Shown piece by piece: positions 3,588 through 52,772 of a DNA stretch of 64,000 nt. A program made the position numbers and the translations under genes. The DNA lies in the NCBI GenBank assembly GCA_037445735.1, contig JBBIJY010000001.1:63883-127882 (forward strand). Direction: 5' to 3'. This DNA comes from Armatimonadota bacterium. GTDB taxonomy: Bacteria; Armatimonadota; Fimbriimonadia; Fimbriimonadales; GBS-DC. Position 1 is the stretch's first letter; the number at the start of each line of letters is the position of its first letter. Below the pieces are notes generated by a model. That model made no database searches. It had not been told where the DNA came from and was given only the letters and a program-made list of their open reading frames with translations.

Positions 3588-4445
3588 CTACGCGGCAACA
3601 ACCTGCCGCATGGCAGCGACCGCCTCGAAGACACGCGCAAGAATGACTTCGCGGGTCTCGTCAGGCAGGCAAATCAGCTGCTCGGCTTCGGAAGGGATCG
3701 GTGGTAGAGCAAAGCCCTGATCGCTGCGGCTCTGTTGATAGCTCCACTGGTCTGCTACCATCAGGCAAGCCGTCGGTATGCGGAGGTCGCCATCGGGCAG
3801 AGCGGGTGCATGATGATTGCCGATAAGATGCACCAGCAACGGAGGCAGCTGCCAGCCGTCGGCAATCAGCGCGCCCACCTCCGCGTGATCCATGCCCAGC
3901 ATCGCGCCCTCCACCTCATGACGGGTTCGCTGTGCATCCGCCGCGCGCAACACCTGCTGATACTCTCTGGGGAAACGAGTGTGCAAAAACAGGATGCCGA
4001 TGTCGTGTAAAAGCCCCGCCATAAAGGCGTTCTCCGCCTGACGGATGCATCGCCCCTGCGCCAGCGCGATTTCGCGGGCAATCCCGGCGCAGGCGAACGA
4101 ATGCTCCCACAGCTCCAGCTCCAGCGGGCTGGGCACCCGACCGTGGCGCAGCGCCATAAACGCCGACACGCCAAGCACCAGATTCTTGACCGTGTGGAAG
4201 CCCAGCACAATCACTGCCTGCTTCACCGTGCTGATGGTGCGCGTCAGCCCGTAATAAGCGGAGTTCGCCAGATGTAGCACCTTCACCGTGAGGGCGGGAT
4301 CGGTTGTGATGAGGCGCTCTACCTGCTCAGCGGTCGCGTTCTCGCTCTCCACCAGCTCGACCAGCTGCGTCACCAGCCCTGGCAGCGCGGGCAGCTCGTG
4401 AATCGCGCGCTCAATGTCCCTGCGCACATCACTCGCCATAATCAT
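3588..4445 (-). CDS. HDOD domain-containing signalling protein (intact copy)
   Basis: ORF 3588..4445. LPALPGLVTQLVELVESENATAEQVERLITTDPALTVKVLHLANSAYYGL followed by an HD-like region (LLHDIG, GMDHAEVGA, GNHH). The duplication unit starts inside this gene at 4124. Confidence 0.8.
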   Translation of the reverse strand: MIMASDVRRDIERAIHELPALPGLVTQLVELVESENATAEQVERLITTDPALTVKVLHLANSAYYGLTRTISTVKQAVIVLGFHTVKNLVLGVSAFMALRHGRVPSPLELELWEHSFACAGIAREIALAQGRCIRQAENAFMAGLLHDIGILFLHTRFPREYQQVLRAADAQRTRHEVEGAMLGMDHAEVGALIADGWQLPPLLVHLIGNHHAPALPDGDLRIPTACLMVADQWSYQQSRSDQGFALPPIPSEAEQLICLPDETREVILARVFEAVAAMRQVVAA

Positions 4446-4548
4446 AGTGCCCCGATGTATGATGCAGATTCAGGGCTATTATCGGACGGTTGCGGGATTC
4501 TCTGCAGGGCGGCGGTCATTCCCTCTTGACTGGCTCCTGCGCAAAATG

Positions 4549-4557
4549 TGGTATAAT
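4549..4557 (+). promoter_or_regulatory. Putative extended -10 element (TGgTATAAT) for the secreted PPC/dockerin gene; repeated at 7453..7461
   Basis: tggtataat at 4549-4557, about 34 nt upstream of ATG 4591, which is preceded by AGGAGG at 4581-4586. The nearest TTGACT (4526-4531) is 20 nt away, so the -35 assignment is weak. Confidence 0.4.
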
Positions 4558-4590
4558 AGAGGTGCGGCTGAGGCCGCGAAAGGAGGTTCG

Positions 4591-6486
4591 ATGATGCAAC
4601 GCAATGGCTGGTTTCGCTGGATGGGGCTGATCAGCATCGCCCTCTGTGTGAGCGCGCCGATGCTGGCGCAGAAGGGGGTACCGTCTCCCAAAGACCAGTT
4701 CGACAAGCCGCGTCCGACGCTCATCGTGGAACCGGTGAATGTCGGTCCGCGCAACCCGGCTCTCTATGCTCCCTATAACGGGGGCGATTTCTCCCCGGCA
4801 AGCGGCGATGTGGTTGTCGTCGATGTAACGGGCACACCCAGCTATGATAGCGCGGGTGCATCGTGCAATGTGCGGCTCACTATCCCCGCACCCGCTGGTA
4901 GAGATAACTTCAACGGCATCGGCTGGGATGTGTGTCTGACGGCAACCTCACCCAGCTGGCGCTGCGAAATCGCCGTGCTGATCACCAATGTGAACGGCGA
5001 AGGCTATATTCTGCGACCGGGCGCTGTTGATTGCTCCGCTGGCTCCGGTTGCTACTCCAGCGGCGCCGTGAACAAGCTGTGCGATGTGTACGGCTTCCCC
5101 GATCTGCCGCTACCCGACGGCAATCTCTACCTGGAGTTCTTCGAAACCTTTGATGACTTCGGTGGCTGCGGGCAGGACGGCAACTGGGACAGCGGCACGC
5201 TCTCCCTGCAGTTTGGTACCACCCCGCCATTCACGGGCTGGGACGAGGCAGTCAACGGTGGTGGAGACGCTGGTGATACCCCTGAAACCGCTCAGAGCAC
5301 TGGCAGCGGCGCGCTGACCGCCATTCGGGGCGATCTGGAAGCCGACGGCGTGGATATGTACGCTATCTACATTTCCGATCCCGCCCTCTTCAGCGCATCG
5401 CTCCGCTGCGGCGCCCTGTTCGACACCCAGCTCTTCCTGTTCGACGCGAACGGCAAGGGTGTGGTGCACAACGACGACACCTTCGGGCTGATCTCTTACA
5501 TCGATAACTCCACCTTCTGTATTCCAGGTCCGGGTGTCTACTACCTTGCCGTGAGCCGATATAACCGCGACCCGGTGGGCTGTGGTGGTGGGCTCATCTG
5601 GAACAACACACCCTTCACAGAAATCCGTTGTCCCGATGGTCCCGAATCGACCTCGCGCGTGTCAGGCTGGTCGGGCTCTACAGGCGCCGCTGGCACCTAC
5701 ACCATCGTCCTGCAGGGCGCCGAGGGCGCCAGTGCGGGTGATCCCGACGATTGTCCGCCACCACCGATCGATCGCTGGGACGAGACCGCTAACGGCGGCG
5801 GCGATGCGGGCGATCTGCCCTCCACCGCGCAGGCTGTTTCGCGACCCGAAGCAGAACCCTGCGCAACGGCGGTCACACGCATCACGGGCAACCGAGCAAG
5901 CACCACCGACGCCGACATGTACATCATCTGCATCACCGACCCGAACAGCTTCGTCGCCAGCACGGTGGGCGGCGCGGGCTTCGATACCCAGCTGTTCCTG
6001 TTCAAGTGCGACGGCACGGGCGTGGTGCATAACGACGACTCCAGCGCAACTGTCCAATCCCAGATCGACAACTCCACAGGCTGTATCACCGAGCCGGGCA
6101 CCTACCTGCTGGCAATCACGGGCTACAACCAGGATCCGGTCGACGCCGGCGGGCAGCTCATCTGGAACAACACGCCCTTCGGTGAGGTGCGCTGTCCCGA
6201 TGGTCCGGGCGCAGGAAACCCGATAGCAGGCTGGACAGGTGATGGCGACTCCGGTATCTACACCATCCAGCTGCAGGGCGCCTACTTTGTCAGCCCGGCA
6301 GGCTGCGTACCTGGCTGTCAGGGCGATGTGAACAGGGATGGCGTGGTGGATGACGCCGACCTGTTAGCTGTGCTGTTCGCCTTCGGCAACTTCTGCTCGG
6401 GTTGCCCCGAGGACCTGAACGGCGACAACATGGTCGACGACGCCGACCTGCTGATCGTGCTGTTCAACTTCGGCTGCGGCGGCTAA
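4591..6486 (+). CDS. Secreted protein: signal peptide, N-terminal domain, two ~165-aa PPC (pre-peptidase C-terminal)-like repeats, C-terminal dockerin-type double EF-hand (copy 1)
   Basis: In-frame ATG at 4591 with AGGAGG 5 nt upstream. Signal peptide [27 protein letters not shown]. Internal repeats [13 protein letters not shown]...DMYAIYI...FDTQLFLFD and [13 protein letters not shown]...DMYIICI...[10 protein letters not shown]-terminus [21 protein letters not shown]...[21 protein letters not shown]. Confidence 0.8.
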   Translation: MMQRNGWFRWMGLISIALCVSAPMLAQKGVPSPKDQFDKPRPTLIVEPVNVGPRNPALYAPYNGGDFSPASGDVVVVDVTGTPSYDSAGASCNVRLTIPAPAGRDNFNGIGWDVCLTATSPSWRCEIAVLITNVNGEGYILRPGAVDCSAGSGCYSSGAVNKLCDVYGFPDLPLPDGNLYLEFFETFDDFGGCGQDGNWDSGTLSLQFGTTPPFTGWDEAVNGGGDAGDTPETAQSTGSGALTAIRGDLEADGVDMYAIYISDPALFSASLRCGALFDTQLFLFDANGKGVVHNDDTFGLISYIDNSTFCIPGPGVYYLAVSRYNRDPVGCGGGLIWNNTPFTEIRCPDGPESTSRVSGWSGSTGAAGTYTIVLQGAEGASAGDPDDCPPPPIDRWDETANGGGDAGDLPSTAQAVSRPEAEPCATAVTRITGNRASTTDADMYIICITDPNSFVASTVGGAGFDTQLFLFKCDGTGVVHNDDSSATVQSQIDNSTGCITEPGTYLLAITGYNQDPVDAGGQLIWNNTPFGEVRCPDGPGAGNPIAGWTGDGDSGIYTIQLQGAYFVSPAGCVPGCQGDVNRDGVVDDADLLAVLFAFGNFCSGCPEDLNGDNMVDDADLLIVLFNFGCGG

Positions 6487-6531
6487 GCCCTCACCCTCTG
6501 CCCCCTCTCCCACGCTGTGGGAGAGGGGGGG
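6487..6531. repeat. GC-rich palindromic element (box GCCCTCACCC plus 13-bp-stem hairpin), directly after the stop codon
   Basis: gccctcaccc tctg ccccctctcccac-gct-gtgggagaggggg. It begins 1 nt after the TAA at 6484-6486. Candidate terminator, but no clean T-tract follows. Confidence 0.75.
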
Positions 6532-6650
6532 TATTCTGGCACAAAGGTTGCTGCATTTCAAGTATCACTGAGCAGAGCCGCTCCTTCCCCAACGGCGCGT
6601 TTCGGTTCCTACGCTTATCTGGCAACACCCTTCACAGGGAGGCACAGGCA

Positions 6651-7027
6651 ATGATCGTTGTGATGCAACCGGGGGCAACCCCCGAACAGGTTCGCGATGT
6701 GGAAGAGCGACTGCGCCAGTTCGGGTTCGACATCCACCCGATCTATGGCGTGGAGCGCACCGTGATCGCGGCAGTCGGCGCACCCGAACTGGACCGCAAC
6801 GAAGCCAAAGAACAGCTCGAATCGCTGCCATGGGTGGAACAGGTCACCCTGGTGCTGAAGCCCTACAAGTTTGTCTCAAAAAAGTTTCGCGAACGCACGA
6901 TTGTGGAGGTGAACGGACTGCCGATAGGGGGCGAGCTGTTCGTGGTGATGGCAGGTCCCTGCACGGTGGAGAGCGAGGAACAACTCCTCAAAACGGCGCA
7001 GGCGGTGCATCAGGCGGGCGCCCACAT
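6651..7027 (+). pseudogene. Truncated 5' fragment of DAHP synthase (first ~125 codons) ending at the duplication junction
   Basis: Identical to 9555..9931 ([21 protein letters not shown]...[24 protein letters not shown]). After 7027 the frame reads antisense HDOD sequence (ORF 6402..7181). Confidence 0.75.
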
Positions 7028-7349
7028 GCGGGCTGGGCACCCGACCGTGGCGCAGCGCCATAAACGCCGACACGCCAAGCACCAGATTCTTGACCGTGTG
7101 GAAGCCCAGCACAATCACTGCCTGCTTCACCGTGCTGATGGTGCGCGTCAGCCCGTAATAAGCGGAGTTCGCCAGATGTAGCACCTTCACCGTGAGGGCG
7201 GGATCGGTTGTGATGAGGCGCTCTACCTGCTCAGCGGTCGCGTTCTCGCTCTCCACCAGCTCGACCAGCTGCGTCACCAGCCCTGGCAGCGCGGGCAGCT
7301 CGTGAATCGCGCGCTCAATGTCCCTGCGCACATCACTCGCCATAATCAT
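7028..7349 (-). pseudogene. Truncated 5' fragment of the HDOD gene (first ~107 codons) ending at the duplication junction
   Basis: ORF 6876..7349 begins with the same MIMASDVRRDIERAIHELPALPG...FMALRHGRVPSP as 3588..4445, then continues into antisense aroF sequence. Confidence 0.75.
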
Positions 7350-7494
7350 AGTGCCCCGATGTATGATGCAGATTCAGGGCTATTATCGGACGGTTGCGGG
7401 ATTCTCTGCAGGGCGGCGGTCATTCCCTCTTGACTGGCTCCTGCGCAAAATGTGGTATAATAGAGGTGCGGCTGAGGCCGCGAAAGGAGGTTCG

Positions 7495-9390
7495 ATGATG
7501 CAACGCAATGGCTGGTTTCGCTGGATGGGGCTGATCAGCATCGCCCTCTGTGTGAGCGCGCCGATGCTGGCGCAGAAGGGGGTACCGTCTCCCAAAGACC
7601 AGTTCGACAAGCCGCGTCCGACGCTCATCGTGGAACCGGTGAATGTCGGTCCGCGCAACCCGGCTCTCTATGCTCCCTATAACGGGGGCGATTTCTCCCC
7701 GGCAAGCGGCGATGTGGTTGTCGTCGATGTAACGGGCACACCCAGCTATGATAGCGCGGGTGCATCGTGCAATGTGCGGCTCACTATCCCCGCACCCGCT
7801 GGTAGAGATAACTTCAACGGCATCGGCTGGGATGTGTGTCTGACGGCAACCTCACCCAGCTGGCGCTGCGAAATCGCCGTGCTGATCACCAATGTGAACG
7901 GCGAAGGCTATATTCTGCGACCGGGCGCTGTTGATTGCTCCGCTGGCTCCGGTTGCTACTCCAGCGGCGCCGTGAACAAGCTGTGCGATGTGTACGGCTT
8001 CCCCGATCTGCCGCTACCCGACGGCAATCTCTACCTGGAGTTCTTCGAAACCTTTGATGACTTCGGTGGCTGCGGGCAGGACGGCAACTGGGACAGCGGC
8101 ACGCTCTCCCTGCAGTTTGGTACCACCCCGCCATTCACGGGCTGGGACGAGGCAGTCAACGGTGGTGGAGACGCTGGTGATACCCCTGAAACCGCTCAGA
8201 GCACTGGCAGCGGCGCGCTGACCGCCATTCGGGGCGATCTGGAAGCCGACGGCGTGGATATGTACGCTATCTACATTTCCGATCCCGCCCTCTTCAGCGC
8301 ATCGCTCCGCTGCGGCGCCCTGTTCGACACCCAGCTCTTCCTGTTCGACGCGAACGGCAAGGGTGTGGTGCACAACGACGACACCTTCGGGCTGATCTCT
8401 TACATCGATAACTCCACCTTCTGTATTCCAGGTCCGGGTGTCTACTACCTTGCCGTGAGCCGATATAACCGCGACCCGGTGGGCTGTGGTGGTGGGCTCA
8501 TCTGGAACAACACACCCTTCACAGAAATCCGTTGTCCCGATGGTCCCGAATCGACCTCGCGCGTGTCAGGCTGGTCGGGCTCTACAGGCGCCGCTGGCAC
8601 CTACACCATCGTCCTGCAGGGCGCCGAGGGCGCCAGTGCGGGTGATCCCGACGATTGTCCGCCACCACCGATCGATCGCTGGGACGAGACCGCTAACGGC
8701 GGCGGCGATGCGGGCGATCTGCCCTCCACCGCGCAGGCTGTTTCGCGACCCGAAGCAGAACCCTGCGCAACGGCGGTCACACGCATCACGGGCAACCGAG
8801 CAAGCACCACCGACGCCGACATGTACATCATCTGCATCACCGACCCGAACAGCTTCGTCGCCAGCACGGTGGGCGGCGCGGGCTTCGATACCCAGCTGTT
8901 CCTGTTCAAGTGCGACGGCACGGGCGTGGTGCATAACGACGACTCCAGCGCAACTGTCCAATCCCAGATCGACAACTCCACAGGCTGTATCACCGAGCCG
9001 GGCACCTACCTGCTGGCAATCACGGGCTACAACCAGGATCCGGTCGACGCCGGCGGGCAGCTCATCTGGAACAACACGCCCTTCGGTGAGGTGCGCTGTC
9101 CCGATGGTCCGGGCGCAGGAAACCCGATAGCAGGCTGGACAGGTGATGGCGACTCCGGTATCTACACCATCCAGCTGCAGGGCGCCTACTTTGTCAGCCC
9201 GGCAGGCTGCGTACCTGGCTGTCAGGGCGATGTGAACAGGGATGGCGTGGTGGATGACGCCGACCTGTTAGCTGTGCTGTTCGCCTTCGGCAACTTCTGC
9301 TCGGGTTGCCCCGAGGACCTGAACGGCGACAACATGGTCGACGACGCCGACCTGCTGATCGTGCTGTTCAACTTCGGCTGCGGCGGCTAA
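7495..9390 (+). CDS. Secreted PPC-repeat / dockerin protein (copy 2, identical to 4591..6486)
   Basis: ORF 7318..9390 has the same 690-aa translation as 4414..6486; same start reasoning shifted by +2904. Confidence 0.8.
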
Positions 9391-9435
9391 GCCCTCACCC
9401 TCTGCCCCCTCTCCCACGCTGTGGGAGAGGGGGGG
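9391..9435. repeat. GC-rich palindromic element (duplicate of 6487..6531)
   Basis: Lies within duplication copy 2; identical sequence. Confidence 0.75.
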
Positions 9436-9554
9436 TATTCTGGCACAAAGGTTGCTGCATTTCAAGTATCACTGAGCAGAGCCGCTCCTTCCCCAACGGC
9501 GCGTTTCGGTTCCTACGCTTATCTGGCAACACCCTTCACAGGGAGGCACAGGCA

Positions 9555-10574
9555 ATGATCGTTGTGATGCAACCGGGGGCAACCCCCGAACAGGTTCGCG
9601 ATGTGGAAGAGCGACTGCGCCAGTTCGGGTTCGACATCCACCCGATCTATGGCGTGGAGCGCACCGTGATCGCGGCAGTCGGCGCACCCGAACTGGACCG
9701 CAACGAAGCCAAAGAACAGCTCGAATCGCTGCCATGGGTGGAACAGGTCACCCTGGTGCTGAAGCCCTACAAGTTTGTCTCAAAAAAGTTTCGCGAACGC
9801 ACGATTGTGGAGGTGAACGGACTGCCGATAGGGGGCGAGCTGTTCGTGGTGATGGCAGGTCCCTGCACGGTGGAGAGCGAGGAACAACTCCTCAAAACGG
9901 CGCAGGCGGTGCATCAGGCGGGCGCCCACATCCTGCGCGGCGGCGCATTCAAACCCAGCACCAGCCCCTACTCCTTTCACGGCATGGGACGCACCGCGCT
10001 CGAACTGCTCCAGCAGGCACGCGAACTCACAGGCATGCCCGTCATCACCGAAGTGATGGACCCCCGCATGGTCGCCCTGGTCTGCGACTATGCCGACATC
10101 CTGCAGATTGGCACGCGCAATATGCAGAACTACGACCTGCTGCGCGAGGTGGGGCAGACGCGCAAACCCGTGATGCTCAAGCGCGGCATGTGGGCAACCT
10201 ATGAAGAGTGGCTGCAGGCTGCCGAATACATCTGGCTGGGCGGCAACGAGCAAATTATTCTGTGTGAGCGGGGCATCCGCACCTATGAAACCTATACGCG
10301 CAACACGCTCGATTTAAACGCTGTGCCCGCCATCCGCGAGCTGTCGCACCTGCCGATTATCGTCGACCCGAGCCATGGCACGGGTCGCGCCTCACTGGTG
10401 CCCGCGATGACCCGCGCCGCGCTGGCAGCAGGCGCAGACGGCGTGATCATCGAGGTGCATCCCGATCCCGCCCGCGCACTCAAGGACGGCGCCCAGTCGC
10501 TGACACCCGACGCCTTCCGCGAACTGATGCGCACGCTCCGACCGCTCGCCGAAGTGATGGAACGCCGACTCTGA
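9555..10574 (+). CDS. aroF: 3-deoxy-7-phosphoheptulonate (DAHP) synthase, type I-beta with N-terminal ferredoxin-like regulatory domain (intact copy)
   Basis: In-frame ATG at 9555 preceded by GGGAGG (9541-9546). Motifs [33 protein letters not shown] and IVDPSHGTG. The ~80-aa N-terminal extension resembles that of Thermotoga-type DAHPS. Confidence 0.9.
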
Positions 10575-13011: not shown

Positions 13012-14931
13012 ATGCGAACAGGATGGATAGTGTTGCTTGGGCTGATATTAAGCGTGCCGTTCGGAACAGCGCAGCAAAGTGAAGAAGATTTGCGCCAGCA
13101 CTGGGCATATCAGGCGATAGAGCAGTTGCAGCGACTGGGCATTTTAGAGGGTTATCCCGACGGTTCGTTCCGTCCCGATCGTCCGCTGACCCGCGCGGAG
13201 TTCGCGCAGGCGGTGTCGCGCGCCTATCGCGTGATTGATGAACGGCTGCGCAACCTGCAGCGGCGGGTGGAAACCTTCGTTACGCCCGCGCCGCCAACCC
13301 TGCCCACCGATGAGGCACGCCAGCGACGCATCCAGCGACTGGAAGAGGCAGTTCAGGAACTCAAAAAGCTCCAGGAAGTGGTGCAGACGCTGGAGCGACT
13401 GATGCCGATGGTGCGCACCGATATCGACATGCGCAGCGAGCAGGTCAGCACGCTGAAAGAGGAGCTGCAGGCGCTCCAGCAGCGACTGGAACAGCTCACC
13501 GCACGCTTCTCGTGGCAGGGCGACCTCACCTTCGGCGGCTACTCCACCCACAGCTTCGACGGACGCAGCGCGTTCACCCTCAACGGCAACCCCATAAACC
13601 CCTCTGGCAGGTTCCTGCAGAGCGACGCCTTCGTTCAGGAGCTGGCGCTGACCGTTCAGGGGCGCGCGAACGAGCGGGTGTCCGGTAAAGCCACCCTCAT
13701 CATCGGCAACTACCTCTCCTACCTGCGCAGCCCCACCCGTAACGCCGATTCGTTCCACAGTGCGCCTGCCCCGTTCCTGCTGCAGAGCAACACCGATTTC
13801 GCCCTCTGGGAAGCCTACATTCAGACCACACTGCCCCTGTTCGGGCGACAGGTCGAAGTCACGCTGGGGCGACTGCCGCTGCGCTTCACACCCTACACCC
13901 TGCAACGAATCGACCCCGATATCTATCTGGATGTCCCGCGCTATGATGATGGCGCGTTCCGGGTGGATGGCGTGCTGTTCGGCACAGGCGGCGACCGCTA
14001 TCGGCTGAACCTGTTCGCAGCCAGCGTGCATCGGCGTCGCTCCGCGGTGGCGCAGGCGTCGCAAATCTTCTTCGCCAACCACAACGCCTCCGTCTCCGCG
14101 CCCGCCGACCAGATAATCGGCTTGCGAACGGAGTACAGGGCGGTGCGGGGCGAGGAAAATTTCGTCAATATCGGGCTGACCCTCTTCGCAGCGGGCATCG
14201 GCAGGGGCAACACCTTCCGCCACCTGACTAACCCAACGCAACCCGCTGACCGCGTGGATGTGCTGGGGCTGGATGCCAGCGGGCGATGGAGCAACATCCG
14301 ATTCGGGCTGGAATACGCCCAGAGCGTCGTCTATGAGGGCGATAACCGCCGTGTCGCACGGAACAACACTGCCTTCGATGCCTATGCCGAGTACGACTTC
14401 AGCGATCGACTCGGCGGGCGACTGGGCTACCGCGAAATCATGCCCTTCTTTATCGCGCCCGGCAATTGGGGACGAATCGGCTACCTCTATAACCCATCCG
14501 ACATCAAGGGCAGCTACCTGAACCTGCGCTATAAGGCATCCGAACGCCTGAACGCATCGCTGGCTGCAGCGTTCTACACGGGCACTGCCCGACTTCGACT
14601 GCCCCAGCGCGGCTACTTTAGCAGCGATAAGCTCAACCGCTATCAGCTCGATGTCAGCTATCAGATCAACCCGCGCTGGCAACTGAAAGTGAGCTATGAG
14701 AATGTCGCCTGGCGCATCCGTAGCTTCGTGTTCGGCGGAGCGCGCGGCAGCCCCGAATGGAACTATCTCACCCTGCAACTGAGCTACAATCTGGGCGAGA
14801 ACGCCGCGCTGAACATCCTGTACCAGTTCATCGATGCGAACGGCAAGGGCGTGCCGCAACTGAGCGGCGGTCCAGGCGCAACAGGCAACCGTGCGGGCGT
14901 TGCAGCAACCACCCTGCGCGTGCAGTTCTGA
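13012..14931 (+). CDS. SLH domain - coiled coil - beta-barrel outer membrane protein (OmpM/Slp-like OM tether/porin)
   Basis: Signal peptide, then an SLH motif (WAYQAIEQLQRLGILEGYPDGSFRPDRPLTRAEFAQAV), then heptad-rich residues ~90-160, then alternating beta-strand-like sequence ending in a C-terminal ...TLRVQF (terminal Phe typical of OM barrels). Confidence 0.75.
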   Translation: MRTGWIVLLGLILSVPFGTAQQSEEDLRQHWAYQAIEQLQRLGILEGYPDGSFRPDRPLTRAEFAQAVSRAYRVIDERLRNLQRRVETFVTPAPPTLPTDEARQRRIQRLEEAVQELKKLQEVVQTLERLMPMVRTDIDMRSEQVSTLKEELQALQQRLEQLTARFSWQGDLTFGGYSTHSFDGRSAFTLNGNPINPSGRFLQSDAFVQELALTVQGRANERVSGKATLIIGNYLSYLRSPTRNADSFHSAPAPFLLQSNTDFALWEAYIQTTLPLFGRQVEVTLGRLPLRFTPYTLQRIDPDIYLDVPRYDDGAFRVDGVLFGTGGDRYRLNLFAASVHRRRSAVAQASQIFFANHNASVSAPADQIIGLRTEYRAVRGEENFVNIGLTLFAAGIGRGNTFRHLTNPTQPADRVDVLGLDASGRWSNIRFGLEYAQSVVYEGDNRRVARNNTAFDAYAEYDFSDRLGGRLGYREIMPFFIAPGNWGRIGYLYNPSDIKGSYLNLRYKASERLNASLAAAFYTGTARLRLPQRGYFSSDKLNRYQLDVSYQINPRWQLKVSYENVAWRIRSFVFGGARGSPEWNYLTLQLSYNLGENAALNILYQFIDANGKGVPQLSGGPGATGNRAGVAATTLRVQF

Positions 14932-14979: not shown

Positions 14980-16422
14980 ATGCCCGTACCTATGAGCGAG
15001 CTGCGCATCTACAACACACTGACGCGCCAGGAAGAGGTGTTCACACCGCGCGAGGCGGGCAGAGTCAGCATCTACGCCTGCGGGCTGACCCCCCAGGCGC
15101 CCGCCCATGTCGGACACATGCGCGGCGTGATCGTCATGGACATCGTGCAACGCTGGTTCGAACAGCTCGGCTACGAAGTGAACTTCGTGCAGAACTTCAC
15201 CGACATCGACGACAAAATCATTCGCCGCGCTCAGGAAGAAGGCATCAGCACGCAGGAGGTCGCCGAAAAGTACAGCCGCATGTATATTGAGGACGCGCAG
15301 GCACTGGGCGTGCGCCTGCCCCGATTCGTGAAGGTCACCGAGCATATGCCCGACATCATCGAGATGGTGCAGCGCCTCGTGGAGTACGGCTACGCCTATG
15401 TGGTCGATGGCGATGTCTACTTCTCCGTCGAGAAGTTCCCCGGCTATGGCAAGCTGTCGGGGCGCAGCCTCGACGAGATGAAGGCGGGCGCGCGCGTGGA
15501 AGTGGACGAACGCAAGCGCAACCCGCTCGATTTCGCATTGTGGAAAGCTGCCAAGCCCGGTGAACCCGCATGGGACAGCCCCTGGGGACCAGGGCGCCCC
15601 GGCTGGCACATCGAATGCTCCACGCTCAGCCTGAAATATCTCGGTGCAGCGTTCGATATCCACGCAGGCGGAATGGACCTTATCTTCCCTCACCACGAGA
15701 ACGAGATCGCGCAGTCGGAAGCCTATCTGCGCTGCGAGAAGCCCTTCGTGCGCTACTGGCTGCACTGGGGTCCCGTGCGCCTCAAGGAGCAGAAGATGTC
15801 GAAGTCGACGGGCGTGTTCGTGCCGATCCGCGAGCTGCGCCAGCAGTACGAGCCAGCGGTCATCCGGCTGTTTCTGCTGTCGGTCGCCTATCGCACGCCC
15901 CTGGAGTTCGCCTATGAGCGGCTGGAAGAATCGAAGTCCGCGCTGGAGCGGGTGCGCACGGCGGTTCAGCGTGCCCGCGCCCTGCTGCGCACGCTGCCAC
16001 AACCCCCTGAACCCAACGAGAGCGTCGCCCAGCCCTACAAAGCGCAGTTTACCGACGCGATGAACAGCGATTTCAACACGGCGCAGGCGCTGGCGGTCGC
16101 CTTCGAACTGGTGCGTGAACTGAATCAGCACCTCAGCGATTCCGAAAGCGCGGGCGTCGCAGCGCAGGCACCCGCGCTCGCCGCCCTGCTGAACACCCTG
16201 CAATGGATGATGGAGACAGTGCTGGGCATCCCGCTCACGCGAGCGGAATCCATCGAAAGCGAGCTGCTCGATTCACTGATGGCGCGCGTGATCGAGTGGC
16301 GCCAGCAGCTGCGCGAGCGCAAACTGTTCGATCTGGCAGACCGCATTAGAGATGACCTCAAAGCGCTGGGCATCCTGCTGGAGGACACCCCCCAGGGCAC
16401 GCTCTGGCGCCGCAAAGAGTAA
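14980..16422 (+). CDS. cysS: Cysteine--tRNA ligase
   Basis: ORF 14980..16422. HIGH-type motif (PAHVGHMRG), KMSKS present (KMSKSTG), and the characteristic CGLTP / WHIECS segments. Confidence 0.95.
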   Translation: MPVPMSELRIYNTLTRQEEVFTPREAGRVSIYACGLTPQAPAHVGHMRGVIVMDIVQRWFEQLGYEVNFVQNFTDIDDKIIRRAQEEGISTQEVAEKYSRMYIEDAQALGVRLPRFVKVTEHMPDIIEMVQRLVEYGYAYVVDGDVYFSVEKFPGYGKLSGRSLDEMKAGARVEVDERKRNPLDFALWKAAKPGEPAWDSPWGPGRPGWHIECSTLSLKYLGAAFDIHAGGMDLIFPHHENEIAQSEAYLRCEKPFVRYWLHWGPVRLKEQKMSKSTGVFVPIRELRQQYEPAVIRLFLLSVAYRTPLEFAYERLEESKSALERVRTAVQRARALLRTLPQPPEPNESVAQPYKAQFTDAMNSDFNTAQALAVAFELVRELNQHLSDSESAGVAAQAPALAALLNTLQWMMETVLGIPLTRAESIESELLDSLMARVIEWRQQLRERKLFDLADRIRDDLKALGILLEDTPQGTLWRRKE

Positions 16423-16423
16423 A

Positions 16424-16466
16424 CCCCCTCTCCCACAGCGTGGGAGAGGGGGCAGGGGGTGAGGGA
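16424..16466. repeat. GC-rich palindromic element filling the gap between convergent cysS and the MFS gene
   Basis: ccccctctcccac-agc-gtgggagaggggg, which is the exact reverse complement of the 6501-6529 hairpin, followed by cagggggtgaggg (box in reverse orientation). Confidence 0.8.
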
Positions 16467-17885: not shown

Positions 17886-20243
17886 TCAGATGAGGCTAAC
17901 TGTCAGCAGCCAGCTTTCGAGGGTGGGCGGGGCGTGGTGCAGCCAGCGCAGGCGCGGATGGCGCGGCATCGCGTTCAACACTATCTGGATGGCGGAGCCG
18001 TAGTCGCCATAGGTGTAGGCTCGCAGCGCGTCGGATAGATCGGGCAACTCGCGCAGGCGCGGTGCCAGCGCCCGCTCGATGAGCCGATCACGGTGCATCT
18101 CGTCGGCGGTCAGCAGCGCATACAGCACCTCCTCCCGCTGAAGCAGGTGAGCAATCGCGAGCGCAATCTGCTGACGCGCCAGCGGCGAGCTGCTGCGCCC
18201 CAGCGCCTCCAGCAATAACGGGATGTCATCCATGCTCCCGTGCCGTGCGAGCGCACGGGTTAGTGCGGGCAAAACCGCCGGCGATGCCTCCGCCCGCAAC
18301 TGGCGGCGCAATCGGTCTGCCAGGCTCGGATCGGGCGGCAGATTCGCCAGCGCAACGGCTGACTCGGCACGCACCTCTGCATGAGGCGACTGCAGGTATT
18401 CCGCCAGCGCGGTTCCCAGCTCGGCAAGTGAGATGCCCGCTTCGCCCGCCTGTGGAATCAGCGTACCCATCGCTTCGATGATGCGCGACTGCTCCAGCGG
18501 TCCTGGCGACTGGCGCAGCCGCTGGAGCAGGGCAGGAAGCACCGTTGCATCACCCAGCTGACGCAACGCCTGCACGACCGCAAGGCGCGTTTCAATAGCG
18601 TCGGCTTGCAGCAGGGGCAGCAGATGGGGCACAACGCGCGGGTCGCCTATCTTGCCCAGTGCCTCGACACATTCGGGCACAATATCGCTGGTGGGGTCGG
18701 TCAGCATCTGCAGCAGGGCGGGGATAGCGCGGGGGTCACCGATTGCGCCGAGCGCCCGCGCCGCCTCACGCCGCACCGCGCCCGACGGGTCGCGCAGCGC
18801 ATGCACCAGCTCCTCCACTGCCAGCGCGGTCTTCTGCTCCGCCAGCGTGCGAATGGCGTGCAGGCGACTGGTCTCATCCGCACGGCGGCGCAGCTGGCGC
18901 ATCGCCAGCCAGCCGCGCGGACGCACCGACGAGCGCAACCGCTGCACCACATAGCGCGTGGGCATCCCCTCTGGCTCATGCACCCGCGCCAGCCACGGCA
19001 ACGAGAGCAGCCGAAACAGCGACGCACCACCAAACAGCACATAAAATCGATACGGGTCCGCCACCAGCGGGCGCATCAGCTCCATCAGCGTGCCACTCAG
19101 CAGTGTCGCCAGCCCGCCCACCGTCGCCACCACCGCCGATAGCGCACCCATATACAGCGCCCGCTGCTCCGCTGGCGCCACCGCCACATTCAGATTAAAC
19201 TGCGTCAAGCCCACACCCGCCCAGAAGAAACCCGCCAGCACCTGAATGCCCATAATCACGCCCACGCTCCACCCATAACGCTCGGGATGAGTCAGCAACC
19301 ACAACCACGGCAGAAACACCACACCCCCCGCCGCCAAAAACAGCAACGGGCGATTGCCGAACTTGTCCGCCAGATAGCCCCATAACGGCATGCTCGCACT
19401 GCTGAACAGCGCCGCCACCAGACCCGCCATCTGAACCATCAGGTAGGGCATCCGTATCTGCTCCAGCATATAGACCGTGAAGAACTGCCCCGCAAACATC
19501 TGCCCGAACACGAAGGTGATGTTAAACATCAACAGATGGCGGAAGTTGGGACTGCGGAACGGCTCCCGATAGAACGCCATCAGCCCGCGCAGACCCCGCT
19601 GTGGCGACGGCTCGCGCGGCACCTCCGGCATCCGCGAGAGCGACCAGAGCGACAGAAACAGGCAGAGCGCACCCAGCGCGAACAGCACCGCGAACCCATA
19701 TTCGGGTGGGAAGCGGTGGTGCTCCACCGCCTGATCCAGAAACAGCGCGGGAGGCAACGCCGCCGCAGCCGACACCAGCCCCAGAATCATGTTCCGCCTG
19801 CCAAAGTAGCGCCCCCGCTGATCGGGCGGCACCAGATCGGTCAACCACGCCAGAAACGCCGGCGCCGCGATAGAACCGAACACCGCCGAGAGAATCAGCA
19901 GCGCGACGAACAGCTCCTTGCGGGGCAGAGGCGCATCCAGAAGCGGCAACGATGCAATCGCCACCCACGGCAGGCGCGACCAGAACGCATAGCGCAGCAC
20001 CAGCCTGCGCCGACTGGGCGCCACATCCGCCAGGTACGCCGCCAGAAACTGGATCGCGCCCGTGAGCGCGGGCACAGCGGTAATCACGCCCAACCAGAAG
20101 TCGTTCGCGCCCAGCAACCGCGCCAACCCTATCTGGAACGCGCCCCCTGTCAACGCCACATACAGCGTGAAGAAGACCGCATCCCAGTTCGCCCAGCGTA
20201 AACCCCGCAGCACCTCCAGACGCGAGAGCCGCTCCCCCTTCAT
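17886..20243 (-). CDS. MFS transporter fused to a C-terminal HEAT-repeat (PBS-lyase-like) domain
   Basis: The N-terminal ~420 aa contain multiple TM segments. The C-terminal ~350 aa contain repeated ..ALRDPSGAVRREAARALGAIGDPRAIPALLQML.. HEAT-like units. Confidence 0.8.
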   Translation of the reverse strand: MKGERLSRLEVLRGLRWANWDAVFFTLYVALTGGAFQIGLARLLGANDFWLGVITAVPALTGAIQFLAAYLADVAPSRRRLVLRYAFWSRLPWVAIASLPLLDAPLPRKELFVALLILSAVFGSIAAPAFLAWLTDLVPPDQRGRYFGRRNMILGLVSAAAALPPALFLDQAVEHHRFPPEYGFAVLFALGALCLFLSLWSLSRMPEVPREPSPQRGLRGLMAFYREPFRSPNFRHLLMFNITFVFGQMFAGQFFTVYMLEQIRMPYLMVQMAGLVAALFSSASMPLWGYLADKFGNRPLLFLAAGGVVFLPWLWLLTHPERYGWSVGVIMGIQVLAGFFWAGVGLTQFNLNVAVAPAEQRALYMGALSAVVATVGGLATLLSGTLMELMRPLVADPYRFYVLFGGASLFRLLSLPWLARVHEPEGMPTRYVVQRLRSSVRPRGWLAMRQLRRRADETSRLHAIRTLAEQKTALAVEELVHALRDPSGAVRREAARALGAIGDPRAIPALLQMLTDPTSDIVPECVEALGKIGDPRVVPHLLPLLQADAIETRLAVVQALRQLGDATVLPALLQRLRQSPGPLEQSRIIEAMGTLIPQAGEAGISLAELGTALAEYLQSPHAEVRAESAVALANLPPDPSLADRLRRQLRAEASPAVLPALTRALARHGSMDDIPLLLEALGRSSSPLARQQIALAIAHLLQREEVLYALLTADEMHRDRLIERALAPRLRELPDLSDALRAYTYGDYGSAIQIVLNAMPRHPRLRWLHHAPPTLESWLLTVSLI

Positions 20244-25459: not shown

Positions 25460-28400
25460 ATGTTAACACGGCTCAATCTTGGCGTTTTGTTGTTCGCTGT
25501 GACGCTGGGTGCAGCGCTCTATGCCCAGCAAGACTGTGACGCGTGTGTGCGTATTCGCGATGCGCGAATCAATTGCCCGAGCGACGCATCAGGCAATATC
25601 ACCTGGACCTTTGAGGTGACCAACGACTCGGACTTCGCCGCGACCTACCTGTTCTTTCTGACGACGCCGCCTGGTGTTTCCGTTTCACCCAATCCCATCG
25701 TTTTTGACCCGCCGCTGGCGCCGGGTGAAACGCGCCCTGTAACAGTTACCATCAGCGGCGCGCTGCCCGGACAGCAACTCTGTTTCGACCTCGTGCTCTA
25801 TAACGCGCAACTCAATCGGTGCTGTCGGGTTCGACACTGCATCACGATCCCGGGATGCTGTTTTGCGGTGACCGATGAGGTGGTCTGGTGCGAACCTGGC
25901 ACAGGCGACTTTATCTACCAGTTCACGATTTTCAACCAGTTCCCGGCGATTATCCAGTATGTGGTGATTGTGTCGGAGACGCCGGGGGTGTCGGTGGATC
26001 CGCAGGTGATTTATCTGGTGCCGCCGCTGGGCTATCTGCAATCGCGCACGCTGCAGGTGCGGTTGCACGGAGCCGTCCCAGGACAAACGGTGCGCCTGCG
26101 GATAGGCTTGCTGGACATCTTCGGGCGATTCTGCTGCTCGGAAGTGCGCGAGATCACCATGCCACCGTGCTGTTTGACCTTCCGCGCGCGTGTGGAATGC
26201 ACGCCAGAGGGTGGGCGGATGACTATCTGCGTCACCAACTGGTTCCCTGCAAATGCCTGCTTTGTGGGCATCACGCCCGTCACACCGGGGGTTGTCGTGG
26301 AGCCTGCGCTGGTGGCGTTGGATCCGCCCTTGCAGTTTGGGCAGACACGCTGTTTTACCGTGCAGTTGCGCTACACGGCGGGTGGTGGCTGTCCGCGCGA
26401 AGTCTGCTTTGTGCTGACCCTGTACGACTGCTTCTTCCGCCAGTGCTGCGCCGTGCGAGGCTGCGTGCAGGCGCCTGCATTGCCTATCAGCCGCACCTAC
26501 ACGACCAGCCAGGATTTCCTGGAAGGCGAGCTGGACAATGTGAACCTGAACATCCCCGACCAGCTCCAGCTGAACCCGGTGGATGAAACCACTATCACCT
26601 ACCCCTACGCGTGGTTCGCGAACTGGGTGGATGGCACGGTGTCCAAGTTCGATATGCGCACGGGCAAAGAGGTGGCGCGCTACTACACGGGACCCATAAC
26701 TGGCGTTTGTCGCCAAGCGCAACCGTCGCGCATGTCGGTGGATGCTGACGGCAACCTGTGGGTCATCAACCGAGCGGTGCAGTATGTAACCGTGGTGCAG
26801 ATTCTGAACGACTCGTTCATCGACCGCAACGGCGATAGTCAGGAGCAGACCTCGCGCGATTTGAACAACAACGGCTGTATTGATCCCGACGAGATATTGC
26901 CGTGGGGTCAGGATGAGCGTGTGGCGCGCGTGTATGCGATTCGTCGTCCCGATGGCGACATTCCTGGCGTTGATCAGTTGGGTCGAGGGGTGGTTGTGGA
27001 CTCCAACGGCTACATCTGGGCAGGGCTGTGGAACGAGGCTCGTGTGGTGCAGATTGCGCCTGACCTCGATCCGTTCCAGTACCGTCCCGATGCCTGGATA
27101 GATGCCTGCCAGGCGCCGCCTCCCCAGCTCTATCCGCCGCTGCTGGAGTCGGTGTCAACATCGCCTGCCCGCCCATACGGTTTGACACTGGCGCCTAACG
27201 GCTTCCTGTACGGGGCATCGCTTAGTCCCTACATCTTTGAGATCTGCCCTGGCGACCCGAATGTGCCTGGTGATGCCCAGCTAACGAGGGTCATCAACAT
27301 TCCAGGCTTCGTCACCTACGGCATCGCTGTTGACCAGCAGTGCCGCGTGTGGTCCGTGAATGCTTGGGGCGGCCATATCGCTGGCTACGATCCCACTACT
27401 GACACCTTGAAACTATCAAACCAGGCGTTTGGCGGCCTCTGGCGCGGCTGCACGGTTGACCCGAACGGGTGTATCTGGACATCGGCAACCTCCCCCAGCG
27501 GCATGGTGGTGAAGTGGTGCATTCCCGACTTCAACGATCCCAACACCTGGACTGTACAGACGCAGACCTACAACACCCACAACGGTGGCACGGGCATTGC
27601 TGCGACGGTCGCTCCCCCGAACTCGGGTCTGCCCTTCTCCATCATCGTGGCTGGCGGTAGCGAAGCACCTGCTGGCTGGACGCAGATTAACCCCATCACC
27701 ATGGCTCCACTCGCCAGCGATACCTGCCCGCACAATCGGCTGGCGGTCTACAACTACACCGACTTCACGGGGTCGCTGCTGCGCATCACCCAGCAGACAG
27801 GGAGCTGGACAGTGGTGTACGACAGCGGCTGCGACGACACCCAGTGGGGCGTGGTGCGCTGGAACGCCTTTGTGCCGCCGGGCGCCGTGCTGAAGGTCAG
27901 GGTGCGCGCGTCCAACATCTTTGGCGGGTGGCCTGAGTACGAAGAGGTGCAGAATGGTCAGGCGTTCTGCCAGCGCGGGCGCTACCTGCAGGTGCAGGTG
28001 GTCTTCTCGCGTCGCCGACAGGGTCAGCAGTGCAGTCGTGAGGTGTGCCGCGGCGCGTTCGGTGATAGCCCCATCCTGTATGACCTGACGATTGCGTCGC
28101 TGTGCGAGTGTCCGCGCGGCACCCTGCAGGGCACGCTCTACTGCGATCGCAATCGCAACGGCTCGCAGGACGCCAGCGAGAACGGGCTGGCAGGCTGGAC
28201 GGTCGTGCTGCGCGACACGCACGGCAATACTGCCAGCGTGGCCACCGACGCGCAGGGGCACTATGAGGTAGAGACGCTGCCCTCGGGGCGGTACGAGGTG
28301 GCGGTGGTGATTCCGCCTGCCTGGCGCGCGGTTACGCCTGCGACGGGACGCTACGAGGTGGAGGTGCAGGAAGGTCGCGCCTATCGCCTCGACTTCGGCG

Positions 28401-28576
28401 TGTCGCTGCGGGCGGATGTGAACGCCGACGGCATCGTGAATGATGCTGACCTGCTGGCGGTGCTGTTCGCCTTCGGCAGTACTGGTCAGGAGCTGGCAGA
28501 GGATGTAACCGAAGACGGCGTGGTCGACGACGCCGACCTGTTGATGGTGCTGTTCAGCTTCGGTCAGCACTGCTGA
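25460..28576 (+). CDS. Large secreted protein: signal peptide, three ~105-aa Cys-rich Ig-like repeats, beta-propeller-like central region, SdrD/Cna-B-like domain, C-terminal dockerin-type module
   Basis: Signal peptide MLTRLNLGVLLFAVTLGAALYA. Three repeats end in CC motifs (RCCRVRHCITIPGCC / RFCCSEVREITMPPCC / RQCCAVRGC). Also GTLYCDRNRNGSQD...GWTVVLRD...GHYEV...GRYEV, and the C-terminus [21 protein letters not shown]...[21 protein letters not shown]. Confidence 0.8.
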   Translation: MLTRLNLGVLLFAVTLGAALYAQQDCDACVRIRDARINCPSDASGNITWTFEVTNDSDFAATYLFFLTTPPGVSVSPNPIVFDPPLAPGETRPVTVTISGALPGQQLCFDLVLYNAQLNRCCRVRHCITIPGCCFAVTDEVVWCEPGTGDFIYQFTIFNQFPAIIQYVVIVSETPGVSVDPQVIYLVPPLGYLQSRTLQVRLHGAVPGQTVRLRIGLLDIFGRFCCSEVREITMPPCCLTFRARVECTPEGGRMTICVTNWFPANACFVGITPVTPGVVVEPALVALDPPLQFGQTRCFTVQLRYTAGGGCPREVCFVLTLYDCFFRQCCAVRGCVQAPALPISRTYTTSQDFLEGELDNVNLNIPDQLQLNPVDETTITYPYAWFANWVDGTVSKFDMRTGKEVARYYTGPITGVCRQAQPSRMSVDADGNLWVINRAVQYVTVVQILNDSFIDRNGDSQEQTSRDLNNNGCIDPDEILPWGQDERVARVYAIRRPDGDIPGVDQLGRGVVVDSNGYIWAGLWNEARVVQIAPDLDPFQYRPDAWIDACQAPPPQLYPPLLESVSTSPARPYGLTLAPNGFLYGASLSPYIFEICPGDPNVPGDAQLTRVINIPGFVTYGIAVDQQCRVWSVNAWGGHIAGYDPTTDTLKLSNQAFGGLWRGCTVDPNGCIWTSATSPSGMVVKWCIPDFNDPNTWTVQTQTYNTHNGGTGIAATVAPPNSGLPFSIIVAGGSEAPAGWTQINPITMAPLASDTCPHNRLAVYNYTDFTGSLLRITQQTGSWTVVYDSGCDDTQWGVVRWNAFVPPGAVLKVRVRASNIFGGWPEYEEVQNGQAFCQRGRYLQVQVVFSRRRQGQQCSREVCRGAFGDSPILYDLTIASLCECPRGTLQGTLYCDRNRNGSQDASENGLAGWTVVLRDTHGNTASVATDAQGHYEVETLPSGRYEVAVVIPPAWRAVTPATGRYEVEVQEGRAYRLDFGVSLRADVNADGIVNDADLLAVLFAFGSTGQELAEDVTEDGVVDDADLLMVLFSFGQHC

Positions 28577-28590
28577 AGCGTTTCCCGCTC

Positions 28591-28635
28591 CATCCCCCCT
28601 CCTGAAGCTTCAGGAGGGGGGATGTTTATTTTTTT
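28591..28635 (+). terminator. Rho-independent terminator: perfect 34-nt palindrome plus T-tract
   Basis: catcccccctcctgaag/cttcaggaggggggatg (28591-28624) followed by tttattttttt (28625-28635), 15 nt after the stop of 25460..28576. Confidence 0.8.
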
Positions 28636-30635: not shown

Positions 30636-30705
30636 AGGGTCGGGTGAAACCCGTGCCGAAACTGGAACTGACGGATGAGCAGGTTGTGGAGCTGATTCTG
30701 CAGCT
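30619..30705. repeat. Conserved 5' boundary block of TA cassette 1 (pairs with 31413..31499)
   Basis: 30619-30684 matches 31413-31478 with two mismatches seen (30621 and 30640); similarity then decays over the next ~20 nt. Offset is 794 nt. Confidence 0.85.
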
Positions 30706-30907
30706 ACCACCAGAGCGACAGAGAGCGGTACTGCAGATACTGAACGCCGCGCGCGATGCATGGTGGGCGCGTATCGTAGCAGAAGGTGAACAGCAAATGC
30801 GCCGTCTCTGTGCTGAACGCGGGCTAAACTGGGACTCGATGACCGAAGAGGAACGCGAAGCGTTTATTGACGACCTGATCCACGAGGATCGCGCGTGCGC
30901 CCAATAG
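30644..30907 (+). CDS. Putative antitoxin of PIN-toxin module 1
   Basis: 87-aa ORF with a GTG start that overlaps the downstream PIN gene by 13 nt. The N-terminal MKPVPKLELTDEQV is shared with the cassette 2 antitoxin. The start could instead be the GTG at 30653. Confidence 0.55.
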   Translation: MKPVPKLELTDEQVVELILQLPPERQRAVLQILNAARDAWWARIVAEGEQQMRRLCAERGLNWDSMTEEEREAFIDDLIHEDRACAQ

Positions 30908-31308
30908 CGGTATTTGATACCAACATTCTATTTTCTGGCTTGGGCTGGCAGGGGACAGCTCATCAGTGCCTTCAACTGGCGCGCGGAGGTCTGGTGGAAT
31001 CGGTGACCTGCCAGGAAATATTGAGCGAGCTGCAAAATGCGCTTCGACTAAAGCGGCGAATGCCTGAAGAAGATATTGTTAGAGCTATAAGCGAGATTTC
31101 GCTTTTCTCGAGGGTTGTTCATATATCGAACGCCCTTTCTGGCATCGTGGCAGACCCTGATGATCATAAGGTGCTGGAGTGTGCGGTGGTAGGGGGTGCG
31201 ACGCATATCGTTACGGGCGACCGTCGCCATCTCTTGCCACTGGACAGCTATCAGGGCATCGCCATCGTCAGCGCCGCCGATTTTGTGAAGCTCCTCACTC
31301 CGCCATGA
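30895..31308 (+). CDS. PIN-domain toxin (putative toxin-antitoxin system ribonuclease)
   Basis: MRPIAVFDTNILFSGL... (first acidic PIN residue in DTN), then ...HIVTGDRRHLL. 137 aa. GTG start overlaps the antitoxin stop. Confidence 0.75.
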   Translation: MRPIAVFDTNILFSGLGWQGTAHQCLQLARGGLVESVTCQEILSELQNALRLKRRMPEEDIVRAISEISLFSRVVHISNALSGIVADPDDHKVLECAVVGGATHIVTGDRRHLLPLDSYQGIAIVSAADFVKLLTPP

Positions 31309-31316
31309 CAGGAACC
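31277..31316. repeat. Conserved 3' boundary block of TA cassette 1 (identical to 32078..32117)
   Basis: The 40-nt sequence ccgattttgtgaagctcctcactccgccatgacaggaacc is present at both sites. Here it encodes the toxin C-terminus (ADFVKLLTPP*). Confidence 0.9.
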
Positions 31317-31399
31317 CCCATCGTGTTTGTGCTGGATCGGGCATAAGGCGCACGCAGTGGTTGACATGCGGGCATCGAGCTTTCACACCTGCGGAGCGA

Positions 31400-31429
31400 T
31401 TGCTCGCCAGAGCCAGCATGCGGTACAAT
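31400..31429 (+). promoter_or_regulatory. Putative promoter of TA cassette 2 (TTGCTC-N18-TACAAT)
   Basis: The -10 TACAAT at 31424-31429 ends 8 nt before the GTG at 31438; it lies within the duplicated 5' block. Confidence 0.4.
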
Positions 31430-31499
31430 AGGGTCAGGTGAAACCCGTGCCGAAACTGGAACTGACGGATGAGCAGGTCATCGAGCTGGTGCGCCAGCT
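31413..31499. repeat. Conserved 5' boundary block of TA cassette 2
   Basis: See 30619..30705. Confidence 0.85.
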
Positions 31500-31707
31500 A
31501 TCGCCCATCAGCAAGCAGAAGGTGCTGGAGGCGCTGGTGAAAGATGCTTCTGTGGCAGAAGGCGAGCCGCCTGCTACAGATACAGAGGCTTTCACCGCGC
31601 TACCCTGCTTCGGGATGTGGTCTGACCGCGAAGAGATGCGCGACAGCGCGGATTGGGTACGCAAGGAGCGAGCGCGATGGCAACAACGAATGGAGCCGCA
31701 GGACTAA
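31438..31707 (+). CDS. Putative antitoxin of VapC-type module 2
   Basis: 89-aa ORF with the same first 14 residues as 30644..30907 but a divergent remainder. Overlaps the downstream PIN gene. Confidence 0.55.
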   Translation: MKPVPKLELTDEQVIELVRQLSPISKQKVLEALVKDASVAEGEPPATDTEAFTALPCFGMWSDREEMRDSADWVRKERARWQQRMEPQD

Positions 31708-32045: not shown

Positions 32046-32077
32046 TACCTGAACTGCAGCTACTCCGCCCCTACTAA

Positions 32078-32117
32078 CCGATTTTGTGAAGCTCCTCACT
32101 CCGCCATGACAGGAACC
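32078..32117. repeat. Conserved 3' boundary block of TA cassette 2 (non-coding here)
   Basis: Identical 40 nt to 31277..31316. It begins immediately after the TAA (32075-32077) of the frame-restored VapC. Confidence 0.9.
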
Positions 32118-32145
32118 TCCTCTTTTCAGGGCGAAACGAGGGGGT

Positions 32146-50555: not shown

Positions 50556-52772
<2,217 letters not shown>

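Follow-up and report, generated by a model that had tools for sequence, protein, structure and literature searches.

The 64,000-nucleotide stretch analysed here (the window; positions 63,883 to 127,882 of contig JBBIJY010000001.1, GenBank assembly GCA_037445735.1) carries, between a gene encoding an HDOD/HD-domain signalling protein and the gene encoding DAHP synthase (aroF), two adjacent copies of a 2,904-bp segment (the unit) that encloses the gene of a secreted protein of the DVUA0089 family. Very probably, this repeat represents a real and very recent head-to-tail duplication of a chromosomal segment in one natural population of Fimbriimonadales. In the sequenced DNA the junction between the copies occurs at a depth close to that of the genome, the segment is found at twice the depth of its surroundings and a sister population holds a single copy of it. 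Judged from the closest genomes, the host is a member of the Armatimonadota, order Fimbriimonadales, uncultured and sampled in a subsurface or hot-spring metagenome study. An earlier note, made from the letters of the DNA, had proposed either a very recent gene amplification or an assembly artefact; the junction k-mers, the depth and the sister population favour the first of these alternatives.

Direct base comparison of 4124-7027 with 7028-9931 showed the same base at 2,904 of 2,904 positions, as the earlier note had stated, and a repeat finder applied to the window recovered the same repeat at a spacing of 2904. The identity ends sharply on both sides (A precedes 4124 vs T before 7028; G follows 7027 vs C after 9931). 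At the joint 7027/7028, which reads ...GCGCCCACAT / GCGGGCTGGG... and is also given as ...GGCGGGCGCCCACAT / GCGGGCTGGGCACCC..., there is no spacer and the microhomology amounts to 0 bp, in agreement with the same note. The window contains no N, and a chance origin of a perfect 2.9-kb repeat is excluded.

The joint was sought in public sequencing runs. According to a word index of these runs, one subsurface-metagenome run (X1) contains 99% of the words drawn from the junction region, and a relative is present in several runs of that study; the words of the junction itself are found, among the indexed runs, in X1 only. The Logan contigs of X1 (k=31), an assembly independent of that from which the window was taken, show zero differences to the window wherever contigs exist. 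One of them, 60 nt long, corresponds to 6998-7057 and comprises thirty 31-mers that are possible only if the end of the unit joins its start; this contig also aligns by its halves to 4124-4153. The contig of the left flank (1,033 nt, depth 14.1) stops exactly 30 nt (k-1) inside the unit and that of the right flank (160 nt, 12.5x) opens at exactly the same distance (30 nt) from the unit's end, with a contig of 1,474 nt (15.4x) after it. The interior of the unit is represented by two contigs, each single and unbranched, one of 1,833 nt (31.2x) and one of 528 nt (30.3x). Such a pattern is the mark of a loop in a de Bruijn graph. The depth of the flank is flat over 20 kb (15.4, 15.6, 16.9, 18.1, 15.8, 15.8 and 16.8), giving a unit/flank ratio of 1.95 and a copy number of about 2. 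Two checks suggested in the earlier note, namely a search for sequence spanning the junction and a comparison of the depth over 4124-9931 with that of the flanks, thus gave the result expected of a duplication, the former at the level of contigs (23.5x) instead of reads. De Bruijn graph assembly, in which one path is walked twice, in part imposes the identity that the two copies show in the contig; independent support for a divergence near zero comes from the two unbranched interior contigs of X1, which cover 81% of the unit, and a handful of copy-specific single-nucleotide polymorphisms may hide behind bubble popping.

A single-copy arrangement in a sister genome, which the earlier note had proposed to look for, was found in a second run (X2). 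This run holds a population about 96% identical at the nucleotide level (77 differences in 2,074 nt). One X2 contig of 3,226 nt (19.8x) runs from within the right end of the unit directly into aroF and another of 2,471 nt (20.7x) runs from the left end of the unit directly back into the HDOD gene, while no X2 contig lies across the junction and the X2 depths over the unit edges equal those of the X2 flanks. Since both breakpoints are read through and the junction is missing in X2, this relative is single-copy and the duplication is therefore younger than the 4% split between the two populations. Exact-protein look-ups with the secreted protein (two choices of start), the DAHP synthase and the HDOD protein retrieved no other public contig. 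A genome scan with the DAHP synthase yielded one close metagenome-assembled genome (L001, 99% amino acid identity), whose 3.9-kb contig opens inside the secreted gene, so that the copy number is not readable from it; in more distant relatives (76-88%) the order HDOD-secreted gene-aroF is not kept. A metagenome scan with the secreted protein returned homologues 52-83% identical in other genomic contexts, and no tandem pair of the family was seen within 10 kb in the relatives.

Some points weigh against a tandem duplication with a doubled dose of the secreted gene. The evidence from X1 is at contig level and two copies on one molecule were not directly seen. The depth of the junction (23.5x) exceeds the ~15x expected from unit minus flank, an excess that may be noise across only 30 k-mers or may reflect some cells with more than two copies. 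No run of RNA holding the secreted gene was found. Finally, the Logan contigs of X1 hold nothing at ≥95% identity for 5957-6353 (equal to 8861-9257), about 14% of the unit or ~400 bp per copy. This hole is probably due to graph cleaning beside very high-copy dockerin words, because similar holes (~250-400 nt; 27702-28074 and 28339-28594) adjoin the dockerin modules of another, single-copy gene of the window and because words that code for dockerin are found at more than 1,000x in every run of the study to which X1 belongs. A further run (X4) contains the window's version of the stretch at 96-99% identity, and the stretch is therefore native to this lineage. An X1 contig of 536 nt (25.6x), which begins exactly at 5927, was considered as the true continuation of the gene, which would make 5957-6353 foreign. 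It was rejected as the principal interpretation: this contig bears its own dockerin pair with a different linker, X4 has the version of the window, and the path of the window through dockerin, linker, stop codon, palindrome and the region upstream of aroF is present in X1 at 25-30x, so that a bridge from 5956 to 6354 would be needed anyway.

Of the other explanations, the one that survives best, although it is unlikely, is a heterogeneous amplification, in which X1 would mix, for example, single-copy cells with cells carrying at least three copies, with a mean of about 2, instead of a fixed two-copy state. Tandem amplifications expand and contract quickly, the excess of junction depth mentioned above speaks for such a mixture, and a single-copy form has no diagnostic k-mers and hence would be invisible among the X1 contigs. 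Against this, the unit/flank ratio is near an integer, and a junction contig of 30 k-mers is not long enough to give a precise depth. An assembly artefact, that is, a spurious loop walked by the assembler over a single-copy genome with no real junction, is very improbable: perfect copy identity is indeed the product of a graph assembler that walks one path twice, but the junction 31-mers occur in the independent Logan assembly at a depth far above the level of errors or chimeras and the unit stands at 2x, and this interpretation was rejected. Equally hard to sustain is the coexistence of one chromosomal copy with an excised DNA circle of 2.9 kb, present roughly once per genome. It would give the same junction and the same doubled depth, and short-read or contig data cannot separate a circle from a tandem; still, the segment ends inside two housekeeping-type genes, it lacks terminal repeats, a recombinase, a replication gene and att-like sites, and it is implausible that a circle that does not replicate would keep a stable 1:1 stoichiometry. 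A laboratory artefact, namely a chimeric molecule formed early in whole-genome amplification or library preparation and then amplified, can practically be dismissed, for although low-biomass subsurface samples are sometimes amplified and the library type is not on record, the flat depth of the 20-kb flanks (15.4-18.1x) is unlike data from multiple displacement amplification (MDA) and disfavours amplification bias and whole-genome-amplification chimeras, the unit is a clean 2x block with edges sharp exactly at the junction coordinates, and the repeat is direct whereas MDA chimeras are typically inverted. A real duplication of the chromosomal segment thus remains the preferred explanation; the repeat is biology rather than an error of assembly, and the contig should keep both copies and not be "corrected" to one.

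The features of the array are listed in Table 1. Their order, intact HDOD gene, first secreted gene, truncated DAHP synthase, truncated HDOD, second secreted gene and intact DAHP synthase, corresponds to that given in the earlier note. The left breakpoint (4123/4124) falls after codon 107 of the minus-strand HDOD gene and the right one (9931/9932) inside codon 126 of the DAHP synthase gene. At the joint, the truncated DAHP synthase retains 125 native residues (the ferredoxin-like regulatory domain and the start of the barrel) followed by a 51-residue nonsense tail read from the HDOD antisense strand, and the truncated HDOD, convergent and overlapping with it, retains 107 native residues followed by a tail of 50.

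Table 1. Coordinates of the duplication and of the associated features in the window (X1, public subsurface-metagenome run).
Feature	Position	Strand	Evidence or remark
Duplication unit, copy 1	4124..7027	.	2,904 bp, every base equal to 7028-9931; X1 depth 30.3-31.2 vs flanks 15.4-18.1
Duplication unit, copy 2	7028..9931	.	Base comparison and repeat finder
Novel head-to-tail junction 7027/7028	6998..7057	.	Exactly spanned by a 60-nt Logan contig, run X1, k-mer depth 23.5
HDOD/HD-domain signalling protein gene, intact, 285 aa	3588..4445	-	Pfam HDOD 2.8e-59, HD 9.5e-10
Divergent intergenic (putative promoter) region, HDOD/secreted gene, 145 bp	4446..4590, duplicated 7350-7494	.	Within the unit
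Secreted DVUA0089-family / PPC-like / dockerin protein gene, copy 1, 631 aa	4591..6486	+	NCBIfam NF038127 56.1 bits, AF2 (AlphaFold2) model, Foldseek
Secreted protein gene, copy 2, with its own upstream region	7495..9390	+	tblastn 100% over 631 aa
REP (repetitive extragenic palindrome)-like GC-rich palindrome, immediately 3' of the stop codon	6488..6537, duplicated 9392-9441	.	Repeat finder; 100-400x in X1
Truncated DAHP synthase fragment	6651..7181	+	Pfam DAHP_snth_FXD 2.4e-20
Truncated HDOD fragment	6876..7349	-	Pfam HDOD 3.7e-26, profile positions 1-85 of 196
DAHP synthase (aroF), intact, 339 aa	9555..10574	+	NCBIfam NF006421 479 bits
11-nt word CGGCGCAGGCG	4085..4095, 6994-7004, 9898-9908	+	Shared-word search near the breakpoints

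The maximal open reading frames of the secreted gene begin at 4414 and 7318. The start is most likely located at 4591 rather than at 4414, because the ATG at this position is preceded by AAAGGAGG and opens a signal peptide with an A-Q end that is invariant among the homologues. The divergent intergenic region would contain the promoter, as suggested by its position; a scan for the sigma-70 consensus revealed nothing convincing in 4446..4590, and in the scan with sigma-70 and terminator consensus sequences no score rose above the shuffle expectation. The palindrome that follows the stop codon is likely a hairpin at the end of the transcript.

Palindromes of the same GC-rich, REP-like family occur in the window at 6488-6537, 9392-9441, 16416-16465, 36197-36290, 51861-51950 and ~60247. 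They share the core CCCTCTCCC...GGGAGAGGG, are intergenic and often stand directly 3' of stop codons, and their words reach 100-400x in X1 vs a genome depth of 16x.

With regard to the formation of the repeat, the best local alignment of the ±300 bp around the two breakpoints scored 23, compared with a mean of 21.5 and a maximum of 31 in shuffles, and hence no repeat fit for homologous recombination is present. Likewise, the signature of a repeat-mediated duplication (R-D-R-D-R) is missing, as there are no direct repeats of tens of bp at the breakpoints. The unit is not recognizable as a mobile element either: no terminal inverted or direct repeats were detected, and no transposase or integrase is encoded in the unit or within 10 kb. 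The surroundings consist of housekeeping genes, the products of which include an M23 peptidase, a glutamate-cysteine-ligase-like protein, a serine hydrolase, an Xaa-Pro aminopeptidase, an SLH porin, cysteinyl-tRNA synthetase (CysRS), major facilitator superfamily (MFS) transporters and MnmE. The absence of a transposase noted earlier was thereby confirmed over this range. The parallel claim that inverted repeats are lacking holds for the ends of the unit and fails for its interior, which includes the REP-like palindrome.

The longest word common to the breakpoint regions is the 11-nt CGGCGCAGGCG, which lies away from the joint, 39 nt to the left of the left breakpoint and 34 nt to the left of the right one, such that the joint is 5 nt out of register with the word. 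The empirical chance that such a word is shared within ±40 nt of two random points of the window is 0.005, a figure attached to a post hoc observation. This repeat may have helped to bring the two sites together or may be a coincidence. Microhomology-mediated formation was considered at this word and at the 6-nt GCGGGC and CCCACA, and none of them predicts the observed joint.

Because the breakpoints share no homology at the joint, a homology-independent join between the HDOD and aroF breakpoints is the mechanism that we infer, and the candidate routes would be end joining of the Ku/LigD type or a replication template switch between sister chromatids. Spontaneous tandem duplication and amplification have their classical examples in Salmonella and E. 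coli (lac, ampC). The event in the window resembles the RecA-independent tandem duplications of these organisms and of Pseudomonas fluorescens SBW25, since it is a head-to-tail chromosomal repeat with breakpoints anywhere inside genes, it lacks flanking repeats, its junction is of 0 bp, the flanking genes are preserved and the enclosed gene is doubled together with its promoter region. It differs from them in that the known ones occurred under laboratory selection, whereas this one comes from a natural, uncultured population in which it is apparently fixed or nearly so, and in that the unit measures 2.9 kb and encloses one gene, whereas laboratory duplications typically extend over tens to hundreds of kb. 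In terms of its junction (0 bp, no signature of homologous recombination) it falls among the bacterial tandem duplications with 0-4 bp of microhomology, a recognised class that was observed in evolution lines of P. fluorescens SBW25 and for which end joining of the Ku/LigD type or template switching during replication is taken to be responsible (bioRxiv 10.64898/2026.05.22.727201). It is, then, one more example of events that are well known, namely tandem duplications or gene amplifications that arise spontaneously and independently of homology, and is slightly unusual in its zero visible divergence, in being fixed or nearly fixed in a natural population that is uncultured and in affecting a strain-variable protein of a multi-paralogue family. 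Its interest resides in the clean, blunt junction coming from a wild uncultured population rather than from a selection experiment and in the nature of the duplicated gene, whose product is a secreted binding protein that varies between strains and belongs to a class in which dosage and diversification are plausibly of importance; otherwise the genomic event is an ordinary one that opens no long-standing question.

The secreted protein had been described in the earlier note as a PPC/dockerin protein. By sequence, both assignments fall below the Pfam cut-offs (PPC, PF04151, 25.0 bits vs a gathering threshold of 25.9; Dockerin_1, PF00404, 15.4 bits vs 22.9). The description is supported, instead, by the match to NCBIfam NF038127 (DVUA0089 family; 56.1 bits vs a cut-off of 29, in two matched stretches), the family name that close homologues also carry at NCBI, and by fold comparison. 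An AlphaFold2 model built with 38 homologues (mean predicted local distance difference test, pLDDT, of 86) shows a signal peptide, three beta-sandwich domains, two of which are DVUA0089/PPC-like, and a C-terminal two-helix module. Foldseek related the model to the tandem PPC-type collagen-binding domains of ColG (5iku, E 4.8e-7) and to ColH (3jqw, TM 0.60), and its C-terminus to a cellulosomal dockerin (2y3n_B, TM 0.80, root-mean-square deviation 1.2 Å, 33% identity); the putative dockerin region contains two 22-residue D-x-N-x-D-G-x-V-D-D-A-D-L-L repeats. The two domains matching NF038127 are thus PPC-like by predicted fold and marginal by sequence. In contrast with the collagenases ColG and ColH, with which it shares the folds of these two domains, the protein of the window, which ends in a putative dockerin, has no detectable catalytic domain and its N-terminal beta-sandwich has no family assignment. 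As judged from the model, it is best read as a putative non-enzymatic, Ca-dependent binding protein, secreted or anchored at the surface.

No experimental account of the function of the DVUA0089 family was found, and one paper retrieved in the literature search mentions the name. The family to which the secreted protein belongs is widespread in Fimbriimonadales, with several paralogues per genome. While the neighbouring genes of L001 and the window are 96-98% identical at the amino acid level, the secreted protein is only 77% identical, and along the second PPC-like domain (8562-9158, equal to 5658-6254, compared with L001:300-900) the DNA identity, 96-97% before the domain, drops to 53-81% (also given as 53-70%) and is back at 96% after it, the borders being sharp. 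In this comparison the domain behaves as hypervariable, which suggests either cassette exchange or recombination with paralogues or diversifying selection. A third, mosaic version of this domain was observed in an X1 contig.

Dockerin modules are very common in the communities of the study that includes X1, because dockerin-coding words are so abundant in all of its runs. To our knowledge, no cohesin partner has been described in Armatimonadota. The window also encodes a second dockerin-bearing secreted protein (25460-28576, 1,038 amino acids) with an SdrD_B/CarboxypepD_reg-like domain, the dockerin repeats of which share 70-74% DNA identity with those of the duplicated gene.

As for the consequences of the duplication, no gene is destroyed, as is usual for a tandem duplication: HDOD and DAHP synthase each retain one intact copy, and two truncated, convergent gene fragments remain at the joint. 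The second copy of the secreted gene is expected to be expressed like the first, because the whole upstream region was duplicated too, and the dose of the protein would presumably be doubled. As a side possibility of low probability, the free-standing 125-residue regulatory fragment of DAHP synthase might be expressed and perturb the feedback control of aromatic amino-acid synthesis. Because a perfect 2.9-kb direct repeat is easily lost by homologous recombination and yet this one is found in approximately all genomes of the population, its maintenance suggests either that a higher amount of this binding protein, secreted or at the surface, is selected for or that the repeat was carried by a clonal sweep of recent date.

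A more far-reaching hypothesis, to which we give little credence, is that selection maintains the duplication in a fixed or nearly fixed state and that it constitutes the first step to a new paralogue in a fast-diversifying family of DVUA0089/PPC-like/dockerin surface proteins, whose second binding domain would be swapped between strains like a cassette. If this were true, the window would offer a natural snapshot of amplification followed by divergence in an uncultured thermophilic Armatimonadota population. The innovation-amplification-divergence (IAD) model has in common with this case a family with several paralogues per Fimbriimonadales genome, a strain-variable domain and a duplicate of zero divergence, which is the expected first step; it differs in that no divergence is visible between the copies of the window, and IAD is here a possible future and not an observation. 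The duplication fits the first step of an evolution by amplification and divergence without demonstrating it.

With respect to the rest of the window, an Rfam search detected no RNA family anywhere in it. Two adjacent antitoxin plus PIN-toxin modules (30644-31308 and 31438-32045) are located within 30644-32120; they resemble each other at the 5' end (83% over 126 nt) and in a 3' tail of 43 nt (98%) and differ in their toxin bodies (PIN_3 vs PIN), so that the pair has the appearance of a cassette swap or of a tandem duplication of greater age. An SLH-domain porin is encoded at 13012-14931, a type of protein by which some diderm phyla attach their outer membrane to the wall, while an MFS transporter fused to HEAT repeats is found at 17886-20243.

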